Source: Escherichia coli (GTDB taxonomy: Bacteria > Pseudomonadota > Gammaproteobacteria > Enterobacterales > Enterobacteriaceae). From it: a DNA stretch of 64,000 nt. A program made the position numbers and the translations under genes. The notes beneath the pieces were generated by a model. It was not told where the DNA came from, did not search any database, and saw only the letters and a list, made by a program, of their open reading frames with translations. The stretch lies in the NCBI RefSeq assembly GCF_024700885.2, contig NZ_CP117016.1; one strand, 5' to 3'. Below are positions 1 through 5,343 of the stretch, piece by piece. The stretch's first letter is position 1; each line of letters begins with the position of its first letter.

Positions 1-56
1 ATGAATACGTGGTTGCTGTTGAGCATCAACTTCGTGGCTGGATGTGAGGAAGAAAA

Positions 57-761
57 ATGGCTACATCGACAGTAATTCCAGGAGATATCACCACGCTAAA
101 GGGAGATGTCAGTAAAACTAAGGAAGATATTTCCTCAATTAACGGAAAAGTATCAACGCTTCAGACTGATATGACCAGTGCAAAGCAGGATATCAGCACC
201 AGATACACAAAAACTGAAGTTGATAATAAGCTGAAAAACAAAGTGGAAGTGAACGATCTGGAAAGTGGTCGTTATGGCGGAGATTTTTATCCACTGACAG
301 GTCGTGAAGCGTTTTATTTATGGAATTTGGCCACGACTACAGCGGCGGCAAACCTTTATCTTAATCCTGACCCCGCAATTTCGTCTGTGCTGCGGTCAAC
401 ATCGTCTATCCGCTATAAACATTCAGTAGAGACAATAGATTCAGAGCACGCTGATCTCATTTTCAGGATGCGCCCTGTGTGGTACAGGTCACAATGCGAA
501 AATGACAGGCGTGACTGGGGATTCTACGGATTGATTGCCGAGGAAGTAGGAGAAATTGCCCCTCAGTTTGTACACTGGCGACCAGCTAACGAAGATGATG
601 CTCCTGAAGCTATTTCCAGCAATGGCCTTGTTGCCGAAGGTGTAATGTACGAACGTCTGGTTGTTCCACTGATTCACCATATCCAGAAGCTGACTGAAAG
701 AGTTGATGAACTTGAGTCAGAATTAAAGTTGTTATTAACTTCCCGAAGCGATATCGGATAA
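57..761 (+). CDS. Phage tail-fibre-like protein: N-terminal coiled-coil, C-terminal intramolecular-chaperone (peptidase S74-like) domain; possibly a fragment
   Basis: 234-aa ORF with heptad-like N-terminus and C-terminal GFYGLIAEEV...VMYERL segment typical of tail-fibre/endosialidase chaperone domains. In-frame stop just upstream at 45-47; another frame closes at 73-75. Confidence 0.5.
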   Translation: MATSTVIPGDITTLKGDVSKTKEDISSINGKVSTLQTDMTSAKQDISTRYTKTEVDNKLKNKVEVNDLESGRYGGDFYPLTGREAFYLWNLATTTAAANLYLNPDPAISSVLRSTSSIRYKHSVETIDSEHADLIFRMRPVWYRSQCENDRRDWGFYGLIAEEVGEIAPQFVHWRPANEDDAPEAISSNGLVAEGVMYERLVVPLIHHIQKLTERVDELESELKLLLTSRSDIG

Positions 762-771
762 AGGAGGAATA

Positions 772-1059
772 ATGGATATAACACCTTTCCTTCATGCACT
801 TTGTGCTGTGGCTGCGCAGGTACTGGTTGGTCTTTTTACCGGAAACTGGGCTTACGGGGCGATAGCCGGTTGTACGTTCTTCATTGCGCGTGAACACACC
901 CAGGCAGAATATCGCTGGATCGAAATGTTCGGGCATGGCAAGCGAATGAATATGCCGTGGTGGGGCGGTTTTGATACACGTGCATGGGATGTGGCAAGCC
1001 TGATGGATTTTGCTGTGCCGGTGGTGGCGTGTCTGCTGATCTGGCTGTTGATCCGTTAA
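772..1059 (+). CDS. Small hydrophobic membrane protein, hypothetical (phage moron-like)
   Basis: 95-aa ORF with two hydrophobic helices; strong RBS AAGGAGG 5 nt upstream of ATG; follows the tail-fibre-like ORF. Confidence 0.4.
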   Translation: MDITPFLHALCAVAAQVLVGLFTGNWAYGAIAGCTFFIAREHTQAEYRWIEMFGHGKRMNMPWWGGFDTRAWDVASLMDFAVPVVACLLIWLLIR

Positions 1060-1064
1060 ATATA

Positions 1065-1110
1065 AAAAGCCGCAGTAACTTGCCATGGCAGGATACTGCG
1101 GCTGGTTTGT
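1065..1110. terminator. Bidirectional terminator-like hairpin between convergent genes
   Basis: Inverted repeat agccgcagta / tactgcggct (1068-1077 and 1094-1103), flanked by A-run upstream and T-rich tract downstream. Confidence 0.4.
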
Positions 1111-1166
1111 GAGTTTAAATAGTGTGTTTATTGCGGTATATTTAAAGGACTTAATGGATTACATAT

Positions 1167-2543
1167 CTATGATATTCCTGAGATATCCTCTTCAAGCTCT
1201 TTTACTGATTTCGCAATTTTAAATTTAAACTTCCTCTCTATTTCACTATTGCTAAGTTTTTTTTCCTTCTCTTTACCTATCCACATAGAAACAAGTTCTC
1301 GTTTCTGAGATATATGTAAATTATCAAAGTTAGGTATGTATTTAAAAGTCTCCGCTCTACCTCTGCGGAGTTCATAGAAAGTTTTAATCAAAGACTTTGG
1401 TTTTATTTCTGATGAAAGGCCGAATCGGTGGATAAGATTATTGATAGTATGATTAACAGAGCGAAGTTGAGCTGTTGAGGTTATTTGTGAGAAGTACGAT
1501 ACCCATCCCAATCGTTTACCTTCAAACACACATCCCGTAATTCTGAGATTTAGTTTCCACTGACAATATGCAACAGCTCGTTCTTTATCACGCTTACTTT
1601 TAGCTTGTAGTAGAGCGTGCCTGTATGCAGTAAAAATCCTTGCTAAAGATGACTCAAATCTAAGAATGCTCTCATGTTTTATCAATAATTCTCGATTTTC
1701 TATGTGGTATCCCAAAAAGTTAAAACTTTCATCCAAGCTGCCTACTTTGGATTTTGAGTTCTCTTCATTTAATGGATGTGGGTTTAAATTTAATGATTGA
1801 AGCTTATCAATGATATGAGAAGCTATTTTTGTTGCTTGATATTTTGGTGTTAAAATAAGAATGTCATCAACGTATCGCATGTACCATATGTCATGCATTT
1901 TATTGATTTCATCATCAAAATTAGATAGTGATATTTCAGCTAAAATGTTTGATATCGCTAATCCCTGAGGTACCCCTCTGGTATTATTCGGGATACCTTT
2001 GCTTCCTGTTGTTCCACTTACAGTAGGCACGATTAATGATGATGTTATTAACTGTCTAATTTCTTTTTTTCTAATTTTATTTTTTATTGTATTAATTATC
2101 AATTTATGTTCAATTGAAGGATAGAAACTTTTAAGATCTATTTTTGCATATTCAGCATAAAGACTGCTGTTTAATGCTTCTTTCAATGAGTCAATTACTG
2201 TATGTGGTAGTTTTAATCTGGAGTTAGGATATATTTCCGTAAGGCATTCACAGAGAGTTCTAAGAGTAATTCTGTCCCTAGCAGTTGGTATGGAAATCTG
2301 TCTGGGTGTAGAGTTAGCGCCTTTAGATATTAATTTTTCTTTATATGCTGTAAATTTGTAATTGCCAGAGTTAACCTTTTCAAAAATGAAAGCGATCTCA
2401 TTTTTTATTGTCAAATCAAGTTTTGATGGGCGAATCCGATCTATGCCAATCGCTCCTGATTCTTTGATTTTTTCAGTGTATACTTTTAGAAGGTTTTTTT
2501 TCGAGAATGACTTTTTAAAAATTCTGCTTGCAGTCATAGTCAA
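1167..2543 (-). CDS. Reverse transcriptase, non-retron, defence-associated (UG/Abi/DRT-like); exact family unassigned
   Basis: 458-aa ORF with ordered RT motifs: PRQISIPTARDRITLR, KIDLKSFYPSI (catalytic Asp), GVPQGLAISN, YMRYVDDILIL (YxDD), FLGYHI; plus ~150-aa helical C-terminal extension. AT-rich. Confidence 0.8.
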   Translation of the reverse strand: MTMTASRIFKKSFSKKNLLKVYTEKIKESGAIGIDRIRPSKLDLTIKNEIAFIFEKVNSGNYKFTAYKEKLISKGANSTPRQISIPTARDRITLRTLCECLTEIYPNSRLKLPHTVIDSLKEALNSSLYAEYAKIDLKSFYPSIEHKLIINTIKNKIRKKEIRQLITSSLIVPTVSGTTGSKGIPNNTRGVPQGLAISNILAEISLSNFDDEINKMHDIWYMRYVDDILILTPKYQATKIASHIIDKLQSLNLNPHPLNEENSKSKVGSLDESFNFLGYHIENRELLIKHESILRFESSLARIFTAYRHALLQAKSKRDKERAVAYCQWKLNLRITGCVFEGKRLGWVSYFSQITSTAQLRSVNHTINNLIHRFGLSSEIKPKSLIKTFYELRRGRAETFKYIPNFDNLHISQKRELVSMWIGKEKEKKLSNSEIERKFKFKIAKSVKELEEDISGIS

Positions 2544-3066
2544 TCCAAAGATATATTAATGGGAGTATATAAAGGGCGGCAGTAGTAAATATTCGAAGTA
2601 ATATCCATAAAATAACAATTATTTTTTCTTTTTGTGTGGGGATCCTCGTCGTAAGTCCAACTTGAGTTACCCTTGAAATTTTATCATCTATGTCACGGTG
2701 ATTCTCAACCTCATTGAGCAAATTAAAATATTTTTCTTTCTGTTCAAGAGTTAACTGTTGACTGGTGGTAATGTCAAAATAGAGTCGCTGTAGTGCAATA
2801 TAATTCCTTCTCATGGCTATTGCTCGACCACGAAAATCTAGGTTAGATACGATCAGCGAAATACCCAGTAGGGCCACCGAAAGTATTGCCGCAACGATAT
2901 CTGTGTTATCTCCTAGAACTTTTGGAAATCGCAACGTTACAATTGAAAGTACCGCACTCAATATAGCATACCAAACGAGGATAAATTGAGAGTGCTTTTC
3001 AAGCCATTCTAGTCGATGGTGCGCTTGGATACGGGCTTTATATGTAAACCAAATATTGTCATGCAT
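2515..3066 (-). CDS. Multi-pass membrane protein with SLATT-like topology; putative effector partner of the RT
   Basis: 183-aa ORF with hydrophobic helices ILVWYAILSAVLSIVTLRF, IVAAILSVALLGISLIVSNL and C-terminal IIVILWILLRIFTTAALYILPLIYLWI. Its stop overlaps the RT start by 29 nt on the same strand. Confidence 0.5.
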   Translation of the reverse strand: MHDNIWFTYKARIQAHHRLEWLEKHSQFILVWYAILSAVLSIVTLRFPKVLGDNTDIVAAILSVALLGISLIVSNLDFRGRAIAMRRNYIALQRLYFDITTSQQLTLEQKEKYFNLLNEVENHRDIDDKISRVTQVGLTTRIPTQKEKIIVILWILLRIFTTAALYILPLIYLWIDYDCKQNF

Positions 3067-3288
3067 AAAAGATCCTTTTTAAAAGCGGAAGGGGCAGGAT
3101 ATATTGGAATCATTGAACATCCTGCCCGGCAGGATCAGTGAGCATAAGCTCAACAGTAAAATATTACTGTTCATTATCAGAGCCGCCCTTGCATGCACAA
3201 GAGGAAAAACCTGCCCCATCCTTTTGAATTATTACAATTTAATGATCTTAAAGTCAATACAAGTGAATGGTGTCCAGAGATGATGAAC

Positions 3289-3537
3289 TTAATGAACAAA
3301 CCACTCGTCAGCAGACTCCCAGGTATCTTTCAGAGTTTCCTGAACAAAAGTTTTAGCTGAATCTTTATCGGCGGTGCGCGTAACAGAAAGGCCATCGTTG
3401 CTGGTGGCTTTTACGATCACCTCTACATCGTCATAACGCTTACTGATGCGTCGAGTTAATTCTTCCTTTAACGCATCCACAGCACCGCTTGGCATTTTAG
3501 TCATTTTCTCTTTAGCTATGCAGATCTCAATACGCAT
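3289..3537 (-). CDS. DinI-family DNA-damage-inducible protein (prophage-type)
   Basis: 82-aa [12 protein letters not shown]...[11 protein letters not shown]...[16 protein letters not shown] matches the DinI family pattern. Confidence 0.7.
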
Positions 3538-3552
3538 AAAAATCCCTCTACA

Positions 3553-3596
3553 CTGTGTTTGTATACAGTGTTATTTTTAACTGTATGAATAAACAG
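3553..3596 (-). promoter_or_regulatory. Two tandem LexA (SOS) boxes upstream of the dinI-like gene
   Basis: CACTGTGTTTGTATACAGTG (3551-3570) and CTGTATGAATAAACAG (3581-3596) both fit CTGT-N8-ACAG, 16-60 bp upstream of the minus-strand start. Confidence 0.6.
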
Positions 3597-3756
3597 TGTC
3601 AATAGAACAAAGATTGCTGCATGTACAAATGTTCTTTGGCTACAAATACACCTACTGATCATGTTCTGCTATGCTCTGATACCTCCAAAATGTACAATCA
3701 GCGGCATGAATTTTTCTTTGTACATATGATTGTACATAATTAAAGAGACAACAATT

Positions 3757-5343
3757 ATGACAAGCCTTTTGGCCGCAGAGGTAGCGAAAAGAAGAACCTT
3801 TGCAATTATTTCTCACCCGGACGCCGGTAAGACTACCATCACCGAGAAGGTGCTGCTGTTCGGACAGGCCATTCAGACCGCCGGTACAGTAAAAGGCCGT
3901 GGTTCCAACCAGCACGCTAAGTCGGACTGGATGGAGATGGAAAAGCAGCGTGGGATCTCCATTACTACTTCTGTGATGCAGTTTCCGTATCACGATTGCC
4001 TGGTTAACCTGCTCGACACCCCGGGGCACGAAGACTTCTCGGAAGATACCTATCGTACCCTGACGGCGGTGGACTGCTGCCTGATGGTTATCGACGCTGC
4101 AAAAGGTGTTGAAGATCGTACCCGTAAGCTGATGGAAGTTACCCGTCTGCGCGACACGCCGATCCTCACCTTTATGAACAAACTTGACCGTGATATCCGC
4201 GACCCGATGGAGCTGCTCGATGAAGTTGAGAACGAGCTGAAAATCGGCTGCGCACCGATCACCTGGCCGATTGGCTGCGGCAAGCTGTTTAAAGGCGTTT
4301 ACCACCTTTATAAAGATGAAACCTATCTCTATCAGAGCGGTAAAGGCCACACGATTCAGGAAGTCCGCATTGTCAAAGGGCTGAATAACCCGGATCTCGA
4401 CGCTGCGGTTGGTGAAGATCTGGCACAGCAGCTACGTGACGAACTGGAACTGGTGAAAGGCGCGTCTAACGAGTTCGACAAAGAGCTGTTCCTTGCGGGC
4501 GAAATCACTCCGGTATTCTTCGGTACTGCGCTGGGTAACTTCGGCGTTGATCATATGCTGGATGGCCTGGTGGAGTGGGCCCCTGCGCCGATGCCGCGTC
4601 AGACTGATACCCGTACCGTAGAGGCGAGCGAAGACAAATTTACCGGCTTCGTATTTAAAATTCAGGCCAACATGGACCCGAAACACCGCGACCGCGTGGC
4701 GTTTATGCGCGTGGTATCCGGTAAATATGAAAAAGGCATGAAGCTGCGCCAGGTGCGCACTGCGAAAGATGTGGTGATCTCCGACGCGCTGACCTTTATG
4801 GCGGGTGACCGTTCGCACGTTGAAGAAGCGTATCCTGGCGATATCCTTGGTCTGCACAACCACGGCACCATTCAGATCGGCGACACCTTTACCCAGGGTG
4901 AGATGATGAAGTTCACCGGTATTCCGAACTTCGCACCAGAACTGTTCCGTCGTATCCGCCTGAAAGATCCGCTGAAGCAAAAACAGCTACTCAAAGGGCT
5001 GGTACAGCTTTCCGAAGAGGGCGCGGTGCAGGTGTTCCGTCCGATCTCCAACAACGATCTGATCGTTGGTGCAGTTGGTGTGCTGCAGTTTGATGTGGTG
5101 GTAGCGCGTCTGAAGAGCGAATACAACGTTGAAGCAGTGTATGAGTCAGTCAACGTTGCCACTGCCCGCTGGGTAGAATGTGCGGACGCGAAGAAATTCG
5201 AAGAGTTCAAGCGTAAGAACGAAAGCCAACTGGCGCTTGATGGCGGCGATAACCTCGCTTACATCGCTACCAGCATGGTCAACCTGCGCCTGGCGCAGGA
5301 ACGTTATCCGGACGTTCAGTTCCACCAGACCCGCGAGCATTAA
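3757..5343 (+). CDS. prfC: Peptide chain release factor 3
   Basis: ORF matches RF3 ([21 protein letters not shown] GTPase motif) essentially throughout; the first ~8 residues differ from the K-12 N-terminus as I recall it. Confidence 0.9.

Follow-up and report, generated by a model that had tools for sequence, protein, structure and literature searches.

A short, putatively self-processing tail fibre and a three-helix membrane protein at the distal end of a prophage tail operon in Escherichia coli

In endosialidases, in T5 pb1 and in MyRF, a C-terminal chaperone is cut off by a serine–lysine pair whose members are spaced five residues apart. Small envelope proteins are in turn encoded beside the host-recognition genes of several phages, as with llp of T5, cor of phi80, N15 and T1, and Z/fun of P2. 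Here we describe two small genes that can be compared with both groups. They lie in the first 1,110 positions of a 64,000-nucleotide stretch of Escherichia coli DNA (contig NZ_CP117016.1, assembly GCF_024700885.2), which as a whole is called the window. These positions contain two complete open reading frames (ORFs) on the plus strand, ORF 57–761 for a 234-residue protein, which we refer to as the mini-fibre, and ORF 772–1059 for a 95-residue inner-membrane protein. A first reading of the letters alone, the original prediction, had interpreted the region as a frameshifted or modular tail-fibre end followed by a strongly expressed small membrane protein that may be a moron. The two ORFs, a TGA at 45–47, an opening in frame 1 that runs to 73–75 and an AAGGAGG motif were all found where it had placed them.

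The DNA upstream of the window was read from the annotation of three of the closest genomes, FDAARGOS_536, M45 and 2017.18.02CC, which are at least 99.97% identical to the window over positions 1–3700. Over the same positions the window is ~100% identical to 4 complete E. coli chromosomes, and 18 chromosomes match at a coverage of at least 80%. In FDAARGOS_536 the genes upstream are, in order, terminase, portal, protease-capsid, tail tube, tape measure, L, J, lom, a side tail fibre gene (stf) that carries a Prophage tail fibre N-terminal domain, and a gene for a 93-residue hypothetical protein, and these are followed by the 234- and 95-residue genes. M45 and 2017.18.02CC, read from J onward only, have the same gene order, and the 93-, 234- and 95-residue proteins are annotated identically across the three genomes. 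Because this upstream DNA is a lambdoid prophage, and because the C-terminal domain of the mini-fibre fits chaperone models as described below, the region was confirmed as the distal end of a prophage tail module. The two findings named beforehand as able to overturn that assignment, an upstream context unrelated to phages and a C-terminal domain that fails to match chaperone models, did not occur. As far as this anatomical part is concerned, we consider it highly probable that positions 1–1110 are the 3′ end of the late (side-tail-fibre) operon of a lambdoid prophage beside prfC. One point counts against it: the upstream context is carried over from near-identical copies of the prophage end, in genomes that show a single mismatch to the window in the first 3700 bases and a divergence of ~2% in the chromosomal part beyond.

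In FDAARGOS_536, stf and lom are flagged as frameshifted (locus L001, 16709–19769), with small insertions or deletions within the first ~20 codons of stf. M45 and 2017.18.02CC match the window just as closely over 1–3700, and there stf and lom are both intact. The flagged frameshifts lie outside the window and could reflect strain-specific decay or an assembly error; they are not general and say nothing certain about the strain of the window.

The mini-fibre gene is intact (57–761, plus strand), with an ATG at 57 and a TAA at 759–761. Its product is identical to WP_001542095.1, a ‘tail fiber domain-containing protein’, and matches phrog_3299 (E=6e-140). The C-terminal part (residues 116–234; positions 402–758) is an intramolecular chaperone, or Peptidase_S74 auto-processing, domain with self-cleavage predicted at Ser116. 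Residues 116–172 matched Pfam Peptidase_S74 (PF13884) with 27.2 bits against a cut-off of 22 (E=4.7e-6), and most close homologues carry the same precomputed Pfam assignment. An alignment of 33 homologues contained only eight invariant columns, two of which are S116 and K121. The best relative of solved structure in the Protein Data Bank (PDB) was the L-shaped tail fibre 8hqz (1076 residues), whose C-terminal end matched at E=1.9e-7 with SGIEYK aligned to SSIRYK. In an AlphaFold 2 (AF2) model the domain was predicted with a local confidence (pLDDT) of 85–96 and ends in a long helix (198–233). Furthermore, a Foldseek search with the C-terminal domain returned the intramolecular chaperone auto-processing (ICA) domain of MyRF (7dc3, E=2.5e-5) and the phage chaperones 3gud (probability 0.97) and 3gw6. 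The Pfam match above cut-off, 8hqz and the Foldseek matches together bear out the chaperone-like segment that had been suspected at this end of the protein.

The remainder of the mini-fibre falls into three segments. Residues 1–24 (57–128) form a conserved N-terminal module, presumed to be the docking segment, which matches positions 1–32 of phrog_4563 and whose motif recurs in homologues from T1-like phages. Residues ~9–60 (81–236) form a predicted coiled-coil stalk, modelled by AF2 as helices 9–47 and 52–60 with a pLDDT of 85–91. The N-terminal stretch weakly matched the coiled coil of the P22 gp26 needle. In addition, natural variants of 227 residues lack exactly one heptad (7 residues) of the N-terminal helix, a deletion that fits a heptad coiled coil. 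Helix prediction, needle match and heptad variants thus support the coiled-coil N-terminus of the original prediction. Residues 61–115 (237–401) make up a short tip before the predicted cleavage site, in which T94, N99 and R113 are nearly invariant.

We read the 234-residue protein as a small self-chaperoning fibre subunit with a mature part of ~115 residues, and not as a chaperone acting in trans. Judged by its sequence, it falls into a known class, that of fibres whose C-terminus is an intramolecular chaperone, and stands out there only by its very short chain and by having a gene of its own. Translation would start from its own ribosome-binding site (GAGGA, 46–50, plus strand), which overlaps the upstream stop codon and lies 6 nt before the ATG at 57. 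The N-terminal ~24 residues would probably dock onto the side tail fibre, residues ~9–60 would form a trimeric coiled coil and residues 61–115 a small tip. By homology, residues 116–234 would probably fold the trimer and then cut themselves off at Ser116 using Lys121, which would leave the mature fibre of ~115 residues. Two points weigh against this reading. Docking and cleavage are inferred by homology only, and the protein was modelled as a monomer in which residues 59–114 have low confidence. Such low confidence is what the model would be expected to give for a segment that folds as an intertwined trimer.

We found that the mini-fibre belongs to a module of exchangeable parts. Related loci were collected with a 17-sequence alignment of the 95-residue family and two of its distant single members; the loci examined comprise 80 E. 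coli viral contigs and ~34 loci outside E. coli. The mini-fibre is present in its 227–234-residue form in 50 of the 80 contigs. A 346-residue alternative allele, which is 71% identical to the mini-fibre over the first 24 residues and unrelated beyond them, fills the same slot in 24 of the 80 as well as in IHE3034 and CE10, so the description of the region as modular holds. A conserved N-terminus with a swappable body at these loci was described by the BASEL authors as fibre subunits docking on a common partner, and multi-subunit fibre architectures are known in the T5-like lateral-fibre group (PMC8594841). The virulent phage KarlJaspers (Bas06, Drexlerviridae) has the same module order in gp37-gp36-gp35, which encode a lateral fibre, a 92-residue protein and a 225-residue protein. 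The lateral fibre and the lambdoid Stf share 44% identity over the C-terminal ~450 residues, the 92-residue protein is 53% identical to the 93-residue protein at the same position, and the 225-residue protein is ~60% identical to the mini-fibre. The fibre end shared by Stf and KarlJaspers is a CBM/LamG-type domain without a chaperone. In phage Lambda_ev203 a related fibre tip, at 45% identity, occurs with a 92-residue gene and without a mini-fibre, indicating that the mini-fibre is an optional add-on and that the 93-residue protein goes with the LamG-type tip.

This arrangement bears on whether the product of ORF 57–761 is instead a chaperone that serves the main side tail fibre in trans. The homologues of KarlJaspers and PeterMerian are annotated in this sense, under the BASEL label ‘putative lateral tail fiber chaperone’; the chaperone domain takes up more than half of the 234 residues and leaves only the short mature part, and the gene always comes after the main fibre gene. 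However, S74-type domains such as those of endosialidases and T5 pb1 act in cis on their own chain and are then cleaved, and the mini-fibre retains the catalytic pair. The main fibre ends in the LamG/CBM-type domain and not in a β-helix that would need such a chaperone, Lambda_ev203 keeps its related tip with no 234-residue gene, and the alternative alleles differ in the middle behind a conserved N-terminus, which is the pattern of receptor-binding proteins. No Tfa-type family (lambda Tfa, Mu U, P2 G) was found among Pfam matches at E≤0.1 or NCBIfam matches at E≤0.01, and the PHROG matches were to fibre proteins; a Tfa-type chaperone acting in trans was rejected on the lack of such matches. 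A trans-acting chaperone of any kind is, in our judgement, improbable, and we retain the self-chaperoning fibre subunit.

We also examined whether the gene is what is left of a larger one. The original prediction had taken the stop at 45–47, together with a different frame running in from the start of the window, as signs of a frameshift. We found that the TGA at 45–47 ends a separate annotated gene, that of the 93-residue protein (WP_001542093.1 in the three near-identical genomes), whose last 14 codons occupy 3–44 in frame 3 (1–47, plus strand). Its translation ends ...EYVVAVEHQLRGWM*, in the same frame as ORF 57–761, and the protein matches phrog_1361 (E=4e-46). The opening in frame 1 (1–75, plus strand) is 30 codons long, from 17 nt before the window to the TAA at 73–75. 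It is annotated in none of the matched genomes and has no Pfam match; it was rejected as a gene on its length and the lack of matches, and is a chance opening.

Selection was measured on both genes. The ratio of nonsynonymous to synonymous substitution rates (dN/dS) of ORF 57–761 was 0.146 against 23 other distinct alleles and was lowest, at 0.10, in the chaperone domain, and the gene was found in 980 of 5426 complete E. coli genomes. For the 95-residue gene the ratio was 0.155 across 19 distinct alleles, with an occurrence in 1903 of the same 5426 genomes (35%; median 2, up to 7 copies). These ratios and occurrences show that both ORFs are real genes. The mini-fibre also stands alone in isolated phages, at identities of 96.6% in IdasGreatGrand, 95.7% in PhiR49_1 and 92.7% in PhiR55_1. 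At ~98% identity it is also present in the laboratory strains E. coli B REL606 and BL21. Two observations could favour a decaying tail-fibre gene of which ORF 57–761 is a fragment, namely that the phrog_3299 profile has 1385 positions and the protein covers just the last ~237, and that stf and lom are flagged in FDAARGOS_536. Yet the ORF has its own ribosome-binding site and start, is kept at 227–234 residues in viable isolated phages and dozens of prophages, is under the purifying selection given above and follows a gene that stops cleanly in the same frame, and stf and lom are intact in the two genomes that are equally close. A fragment is thus extremely improbable, and the end of the 93-residue gene, the 30-codon frame 1, the stand-alone conservation and the dN/dS refute a frameshift.

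The 93-residue family (phrog_1361/phrog_18574) recurs right after LamG/CBM-ended fibres in distant phages (loci L113, 4627–5004; L114, 4696–5004; L003, 5710–5988). In these three loci it directly precedes the membrane gene, and there is no mini-fibre. The 93-residue gene accompanies side-tail-fibre tips of the LamG type; its product, a candidate assembly helper, may be dedicated to the LamG/CBM-type fibre tip.

The second ORF (772–1059, plus strand) encodes a three-helix inner-membrane protein identical to WP_001542096.1 and assigned to phrog_1443 (‘unknown function’). An AF2 model based on a 108-member alignment had a pLDDT of 97.8 and contained helices 4–23, 26–53 and 74–94; hydropathy in a 19-residue window revealed two clear hydrophobic segments, 3–21 and 76–94. 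R40 and P83 are invariant in the family, H8, E41, Q44, A45, E46, R58 and W72 are conserved in at least 90% of members and D79 in 89%, and in the model all of these residues lie near the same membrane face. The topology is ambiguous by the positive-inside count, since the long loop carries on average 5.9 lysine and arginine residues but also 4.5 aspartate and glutamate residues and both termini are weakly positive. All 461 relatives returned by a word-indexed search bear the name ‘hypothetical’, and an exhaustive profile search yielded 535 clusters at 50% identity, all of them stand-alone proteins of ~90–120 residues; the hosts include Escherichia, Aeromonas, Halomonas and Comamonas. The protein had no match in Pfam, NCBIfam or PADLOC. 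Pfam searches with 108 diverse family members gave nothing convincing, with a weak holin match for one of the 108, and PDB sequence searches with the protein and its profile returned nothing informative. In a Foldseek comparison of the model with viral models the only match was a 42-residue fragment in coliphage anhysbys. No described family of exclusion or defence proteins resembled the protein, and a literature search for a characterized fibre-adjacent membrane protein found nothing relevant. The protein belongs to no described family; it is common, confidently foldable and uncharacterized.

This gene keeps a strict position. Of the 80 E. coli viral contigs, 78 have it directly behind a mini-fibre allele, and in most of them 10 or 27 nt separate the two. 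In the ~34 diverse loci outside E. coli, the relatives have a fibre, tailspike, Tfa or J gene in front of them and often overlap it by 4 nt, and a PHROG scan of the upstream neighbours returned tail fibre, tail spike and tail fibre assembly families. In relatives of Hapunavirus the gene is flanked by the fibre assembly gene (tfa) and the sheath gene, and a 4-nt overlap is common; in a P2-like prophage of Aeromonas it overlaps the tail fibre gene at the latter's end; and in Comamonas it comes after a J-like tip protein. In metagenomic phages the relatives follow fibres or spikes of 568–1262 residues, some ending in S74 domains and some followed by a homologue of the 93-residue protein. The family is thus a terminal, often translationally coupled cistron of fibre, tailspike and J clusters in siphoviruses, P2-like myoviruses, Hapunavirus and jumbo phages.

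Both ends of the gene are mosaic joints. Prophages with other fibre alleles share the sequence from 762 on and most E. coli matches stop at ~1050, so that homology mostly ends with the gene; the fibre allele before it and the cargo behind it vary, and the gene itself is a conserved island. Two virulent phages, the T1-like phage 6947 and Kuttervirus KFSST3, carry broken and unannotated remnants of it immediately behind a fibre or tailspike gene (loci L007, 3965–4120, and L008, 3980–4105); the fragment in coliphage anhysbys is a third. The remnants in 6947 and KFSST3 suggest that virulent phages acquired fibre cassettes from temperate ones with the 95-residue gene attached, and that the gene decayed afterwards. 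KarlJaspers has the same fibre module and no 95-residue gene, and the gene is therefore not needed for the module.

To judge how the gene is expressed, we examined the sequences on either side of it. An AAGGAGG Shine–Dalgarno sequence (761–767, plus strand) overlaps the last base of the upstream stop codon and lies 4 nt before the ATG. The claim of strong expression is deduced from this near-consensus ribosome-binding site only. A crude consensus scan of the plus strand over 1–771 found no sigma-70-like promoter, and across fibre alleles only the 10 nt upstream of the gene, which hold the ribosome-binding site and make up the gap to the mini-fibre gene, are conserved, with homology starting at 762. 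Downstream, a strong hairpin at 1068–1103 (ΔG −27.1 kcal mol−1, z −5.8, with none of 200 shuffled sequences as good) is followed by UGGUUUGU on the plus strand and has a U-run on the minus strand. This is likely a bidirectional terminator, which a simple terminator scan did not list, and it likely closes both the fibre operon and the convergent reverse-transcriptase gene. As the simplest reading of these signals, the 95-residue gene would be co-expressed with the fibres; its only transcript would probably be that of the fibre operon, in which it is the last cistron, and its product would be made late.

These signals matter for the proposal that the gene is a moron, that is, an autonomous conversion gene expressed in the lysogen and responsible for superinfection exclusion. 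A membrane protein is encoded here at classical moron positions (after stf in lambdoid phages and in the tfa–sheath gap of P2-like phages), a terminator follows the gene, the fibre module can dispense with it and it has decayed in two virulent lineages; moreover, the pairing of a receptor-binding gene with an exclusion gene is an established pattern, as for T5 llp and phi80/T1 cor. Against this, the scan revealed no promoter immediately upstream, where a moron would have its own, and in many phages the start overlaps the upstream fibre or chaperone gene by 4 nt. The same protein stands behind unrelated fibre types and so is not receptor-specific, the searches of PADLOC, Pfam and NCBIfam were empty, and presence in about a third of E. 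coli genomes, typically in two copies, has the look of a core operon gene and not of sporadic cargo. We conclude that the gene is not a classical moron, given the lack of a plus-strand promoter in 1–771, shared sequence only from 762 and the stop/start overlaps elsewhere. As first stated, the moron and superinfection-exclusion proposal is not supported for what is a near-universal terminal gene of fibre clusters, and we regard an autonomous moron as unlikely. The scan was crude, and a weak or non-sigma-70 promoter inside the fibre gene is possible, which tells against late co-expression with the fibres.

A lysis-related role, as a holin, antiholin or late lysis-timing factor, fits a small three-helix inner-membrane protein that is apparently expressed with late genes. 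It would place the ancestral gene at the fibre/lysis junction, from where lambdoid and P2-like phages carried it along with fibre cassettes. Several distant loci have such a junction: in L114 (5342–6028) the relative is followed by an 81-residue protein with a single transmembrane segment and a Phage_lysozyme gene, in L113 (5469–6158) by an SLT-like hydrolase, in L011 (341–1504) by a lysozyme-like gene, in L012 (623–904) by an Rz1-like LysC gene, and in L093 by two more small genes with several transmembrane segments. Every one of these lysis-adjacent loci, however, has another small transmembrane protein able to be the holin. An endolysin gene adjoins the 95-residue gene neither in the window nor in those matched prophage regions of E. 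coli that were examined, nor in the Hapunavirus and P2-like loci; adjacency holds in a few distant loci, and the Hapunavirus relative lies between tfa and the sheath gene. Of the features of class I holins, the three membrane helices of a small protein are present and the charged C-terminal tail is absent: the tail averages 4.7 residues with 0.63 lysine and arginine over 108 members, and the protein of the window ends ...LLIR. The 36-residue polar loop with its almost invariant RExxQAE motif would be unusual for a holin, and just the one weak match among the 108 members was to a holin family. On balance a lysis function appears doubtful, though somewhat less so than the moron.

The protein would not be part of the virion. 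Our best guess, put forward tentatively, is an envelope function that aids the phage around adsorption or entry, of the exclusion or progeny-protection type; a lysis-timing role comes close to it in likelihood. The envelope role was favoured because the gene has decayed in virulent lineages and because receptor-linked exclusion genes are a precedent. Several points weigh against it. Late-only expression, and the fact that one membrane protein accompanies several unrelated fibre types, sit uneasily with an exclusion-type role, and relatives abut lysis genes in several distant phages. In addition, an intact copy that has lost none of the conserved residues is present in jumbo Aeromonas phages, and if these phages are virulent, the argument that only temperate phages keep the gene is weakened. 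A part in fibre maturation seems to us improbable. A broader possibility, which we hold to be about as doubtful as a lysis function, is that the family represents an undescribed class of inner-membrane proteins mechanistically tied to receptor-binding proteins, a new late accessory factor. The site proposed for this class is the almost invariant set H8, R40-E41-x-x-Q44-x-E46, W72, D79 and P83 at one membrane face. If this is true, the class might keep host envelope precursors or debris away from fibres or progeny, or might link lysis to the completion of the fibres.

Beyond the hairpin, the prophage carries a reverse transcriptase gene on the minus strand (1167–2543; PADLOC RT_UG17, E=2e-158, with a YVDD motif) and an adjoining SLATT gene (SLATT_5; 2515–3066, minus strand). 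Together they are a DRT10 anti-phage system (1167–3288, minus strand). DRT10 has been described as tripartite, with a noncoding RNA upstream of the SLATT gene in addition to the SLATT and reverse transcriptase genes (PMC12632851). The corresponding position here is a 222-nt gap at 3067–3288; Rfam 15 gave no match in positions 1–4000 of the window, including none for the noncoding RNA expected beside the reverse transcriptase. A dinI-like gene (3289–3537, minus strand) is the last prophage gene before the chromosomal prfC (3757–5343, plus strand), which is followed by osmY, also on the plus strand. Two related genomes lose homology to the window at ~3596–3605, where the prophage–chromosome junction (attR) probably lies. 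The real accessory cargo of this prophage end is thus the downstream DRT10 defence system and dinI.

As a whole, the region is an ordinary, normally organized prophage tail-fibre end that is already annotated in RefSeq and has no frameshift to chase. A gene labelled ‘lateral tail fibre chaperone’ in some phages looks like a self-processing mini-fibre with a conserved docking N-terminus and a swappable middle, and this reading matters for host-range engineering with lambdoid or T1-like fibre cassettes. The part worth follow-up is the strict position of the 95-residue family after host-recognition genes across unrelated phage types.

Compared with known systems, the mini-fibre resembles T5-like L-shaped fibres (T5 pb1; 8hqz) in its C-terminal Peptidase_S74 domain, the Ser/Lys pair, the terminal helix and ‘YTKTEVD’-type repeats. 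It differs from them in having only 234 residues and in being encoded by a separate small gene after a main fibre that itself lacks a chaperone domain. The chaperones of endosialidase and of the GA-1 neck appendage (3gw6, 3gud) and MyRF (7dc3) share the fold of residues 116–234 (probability 0.97–1.0) and the spacing of the catalytic pair, whereas identity is 12–27% and the cargo of the mini-fibre is a coiled coil and a small tip instead of a large β-helical spike. KarlJaspers, which shares the module, differs in being virulent, in the absence of a 95-residue membrane gene after the module and in another N-terminal fibre attachment domain. The 95-residue protein is like the class I holins lambda S and P2 Y in size, in three predicted helices and in the late expression inferred here, and a few of its relatives abut an endolysin gene; unlike them it has a long conserved polar loop, no charged tail, no holin family match and usually no endolysin neighbour. 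From llp, cor and Z/fun it differs in sequence and fold, in being a polytopic inner-membrane protein and not a lipoprotein, in having no detected promoter and in not being tied to one type of receptor-binding protein. It shares with them its small size and its place beside host-recognition genes, and in Hapunavirus the position between tfa and the sheath gene corresponds to the Z/fun slot of P2.

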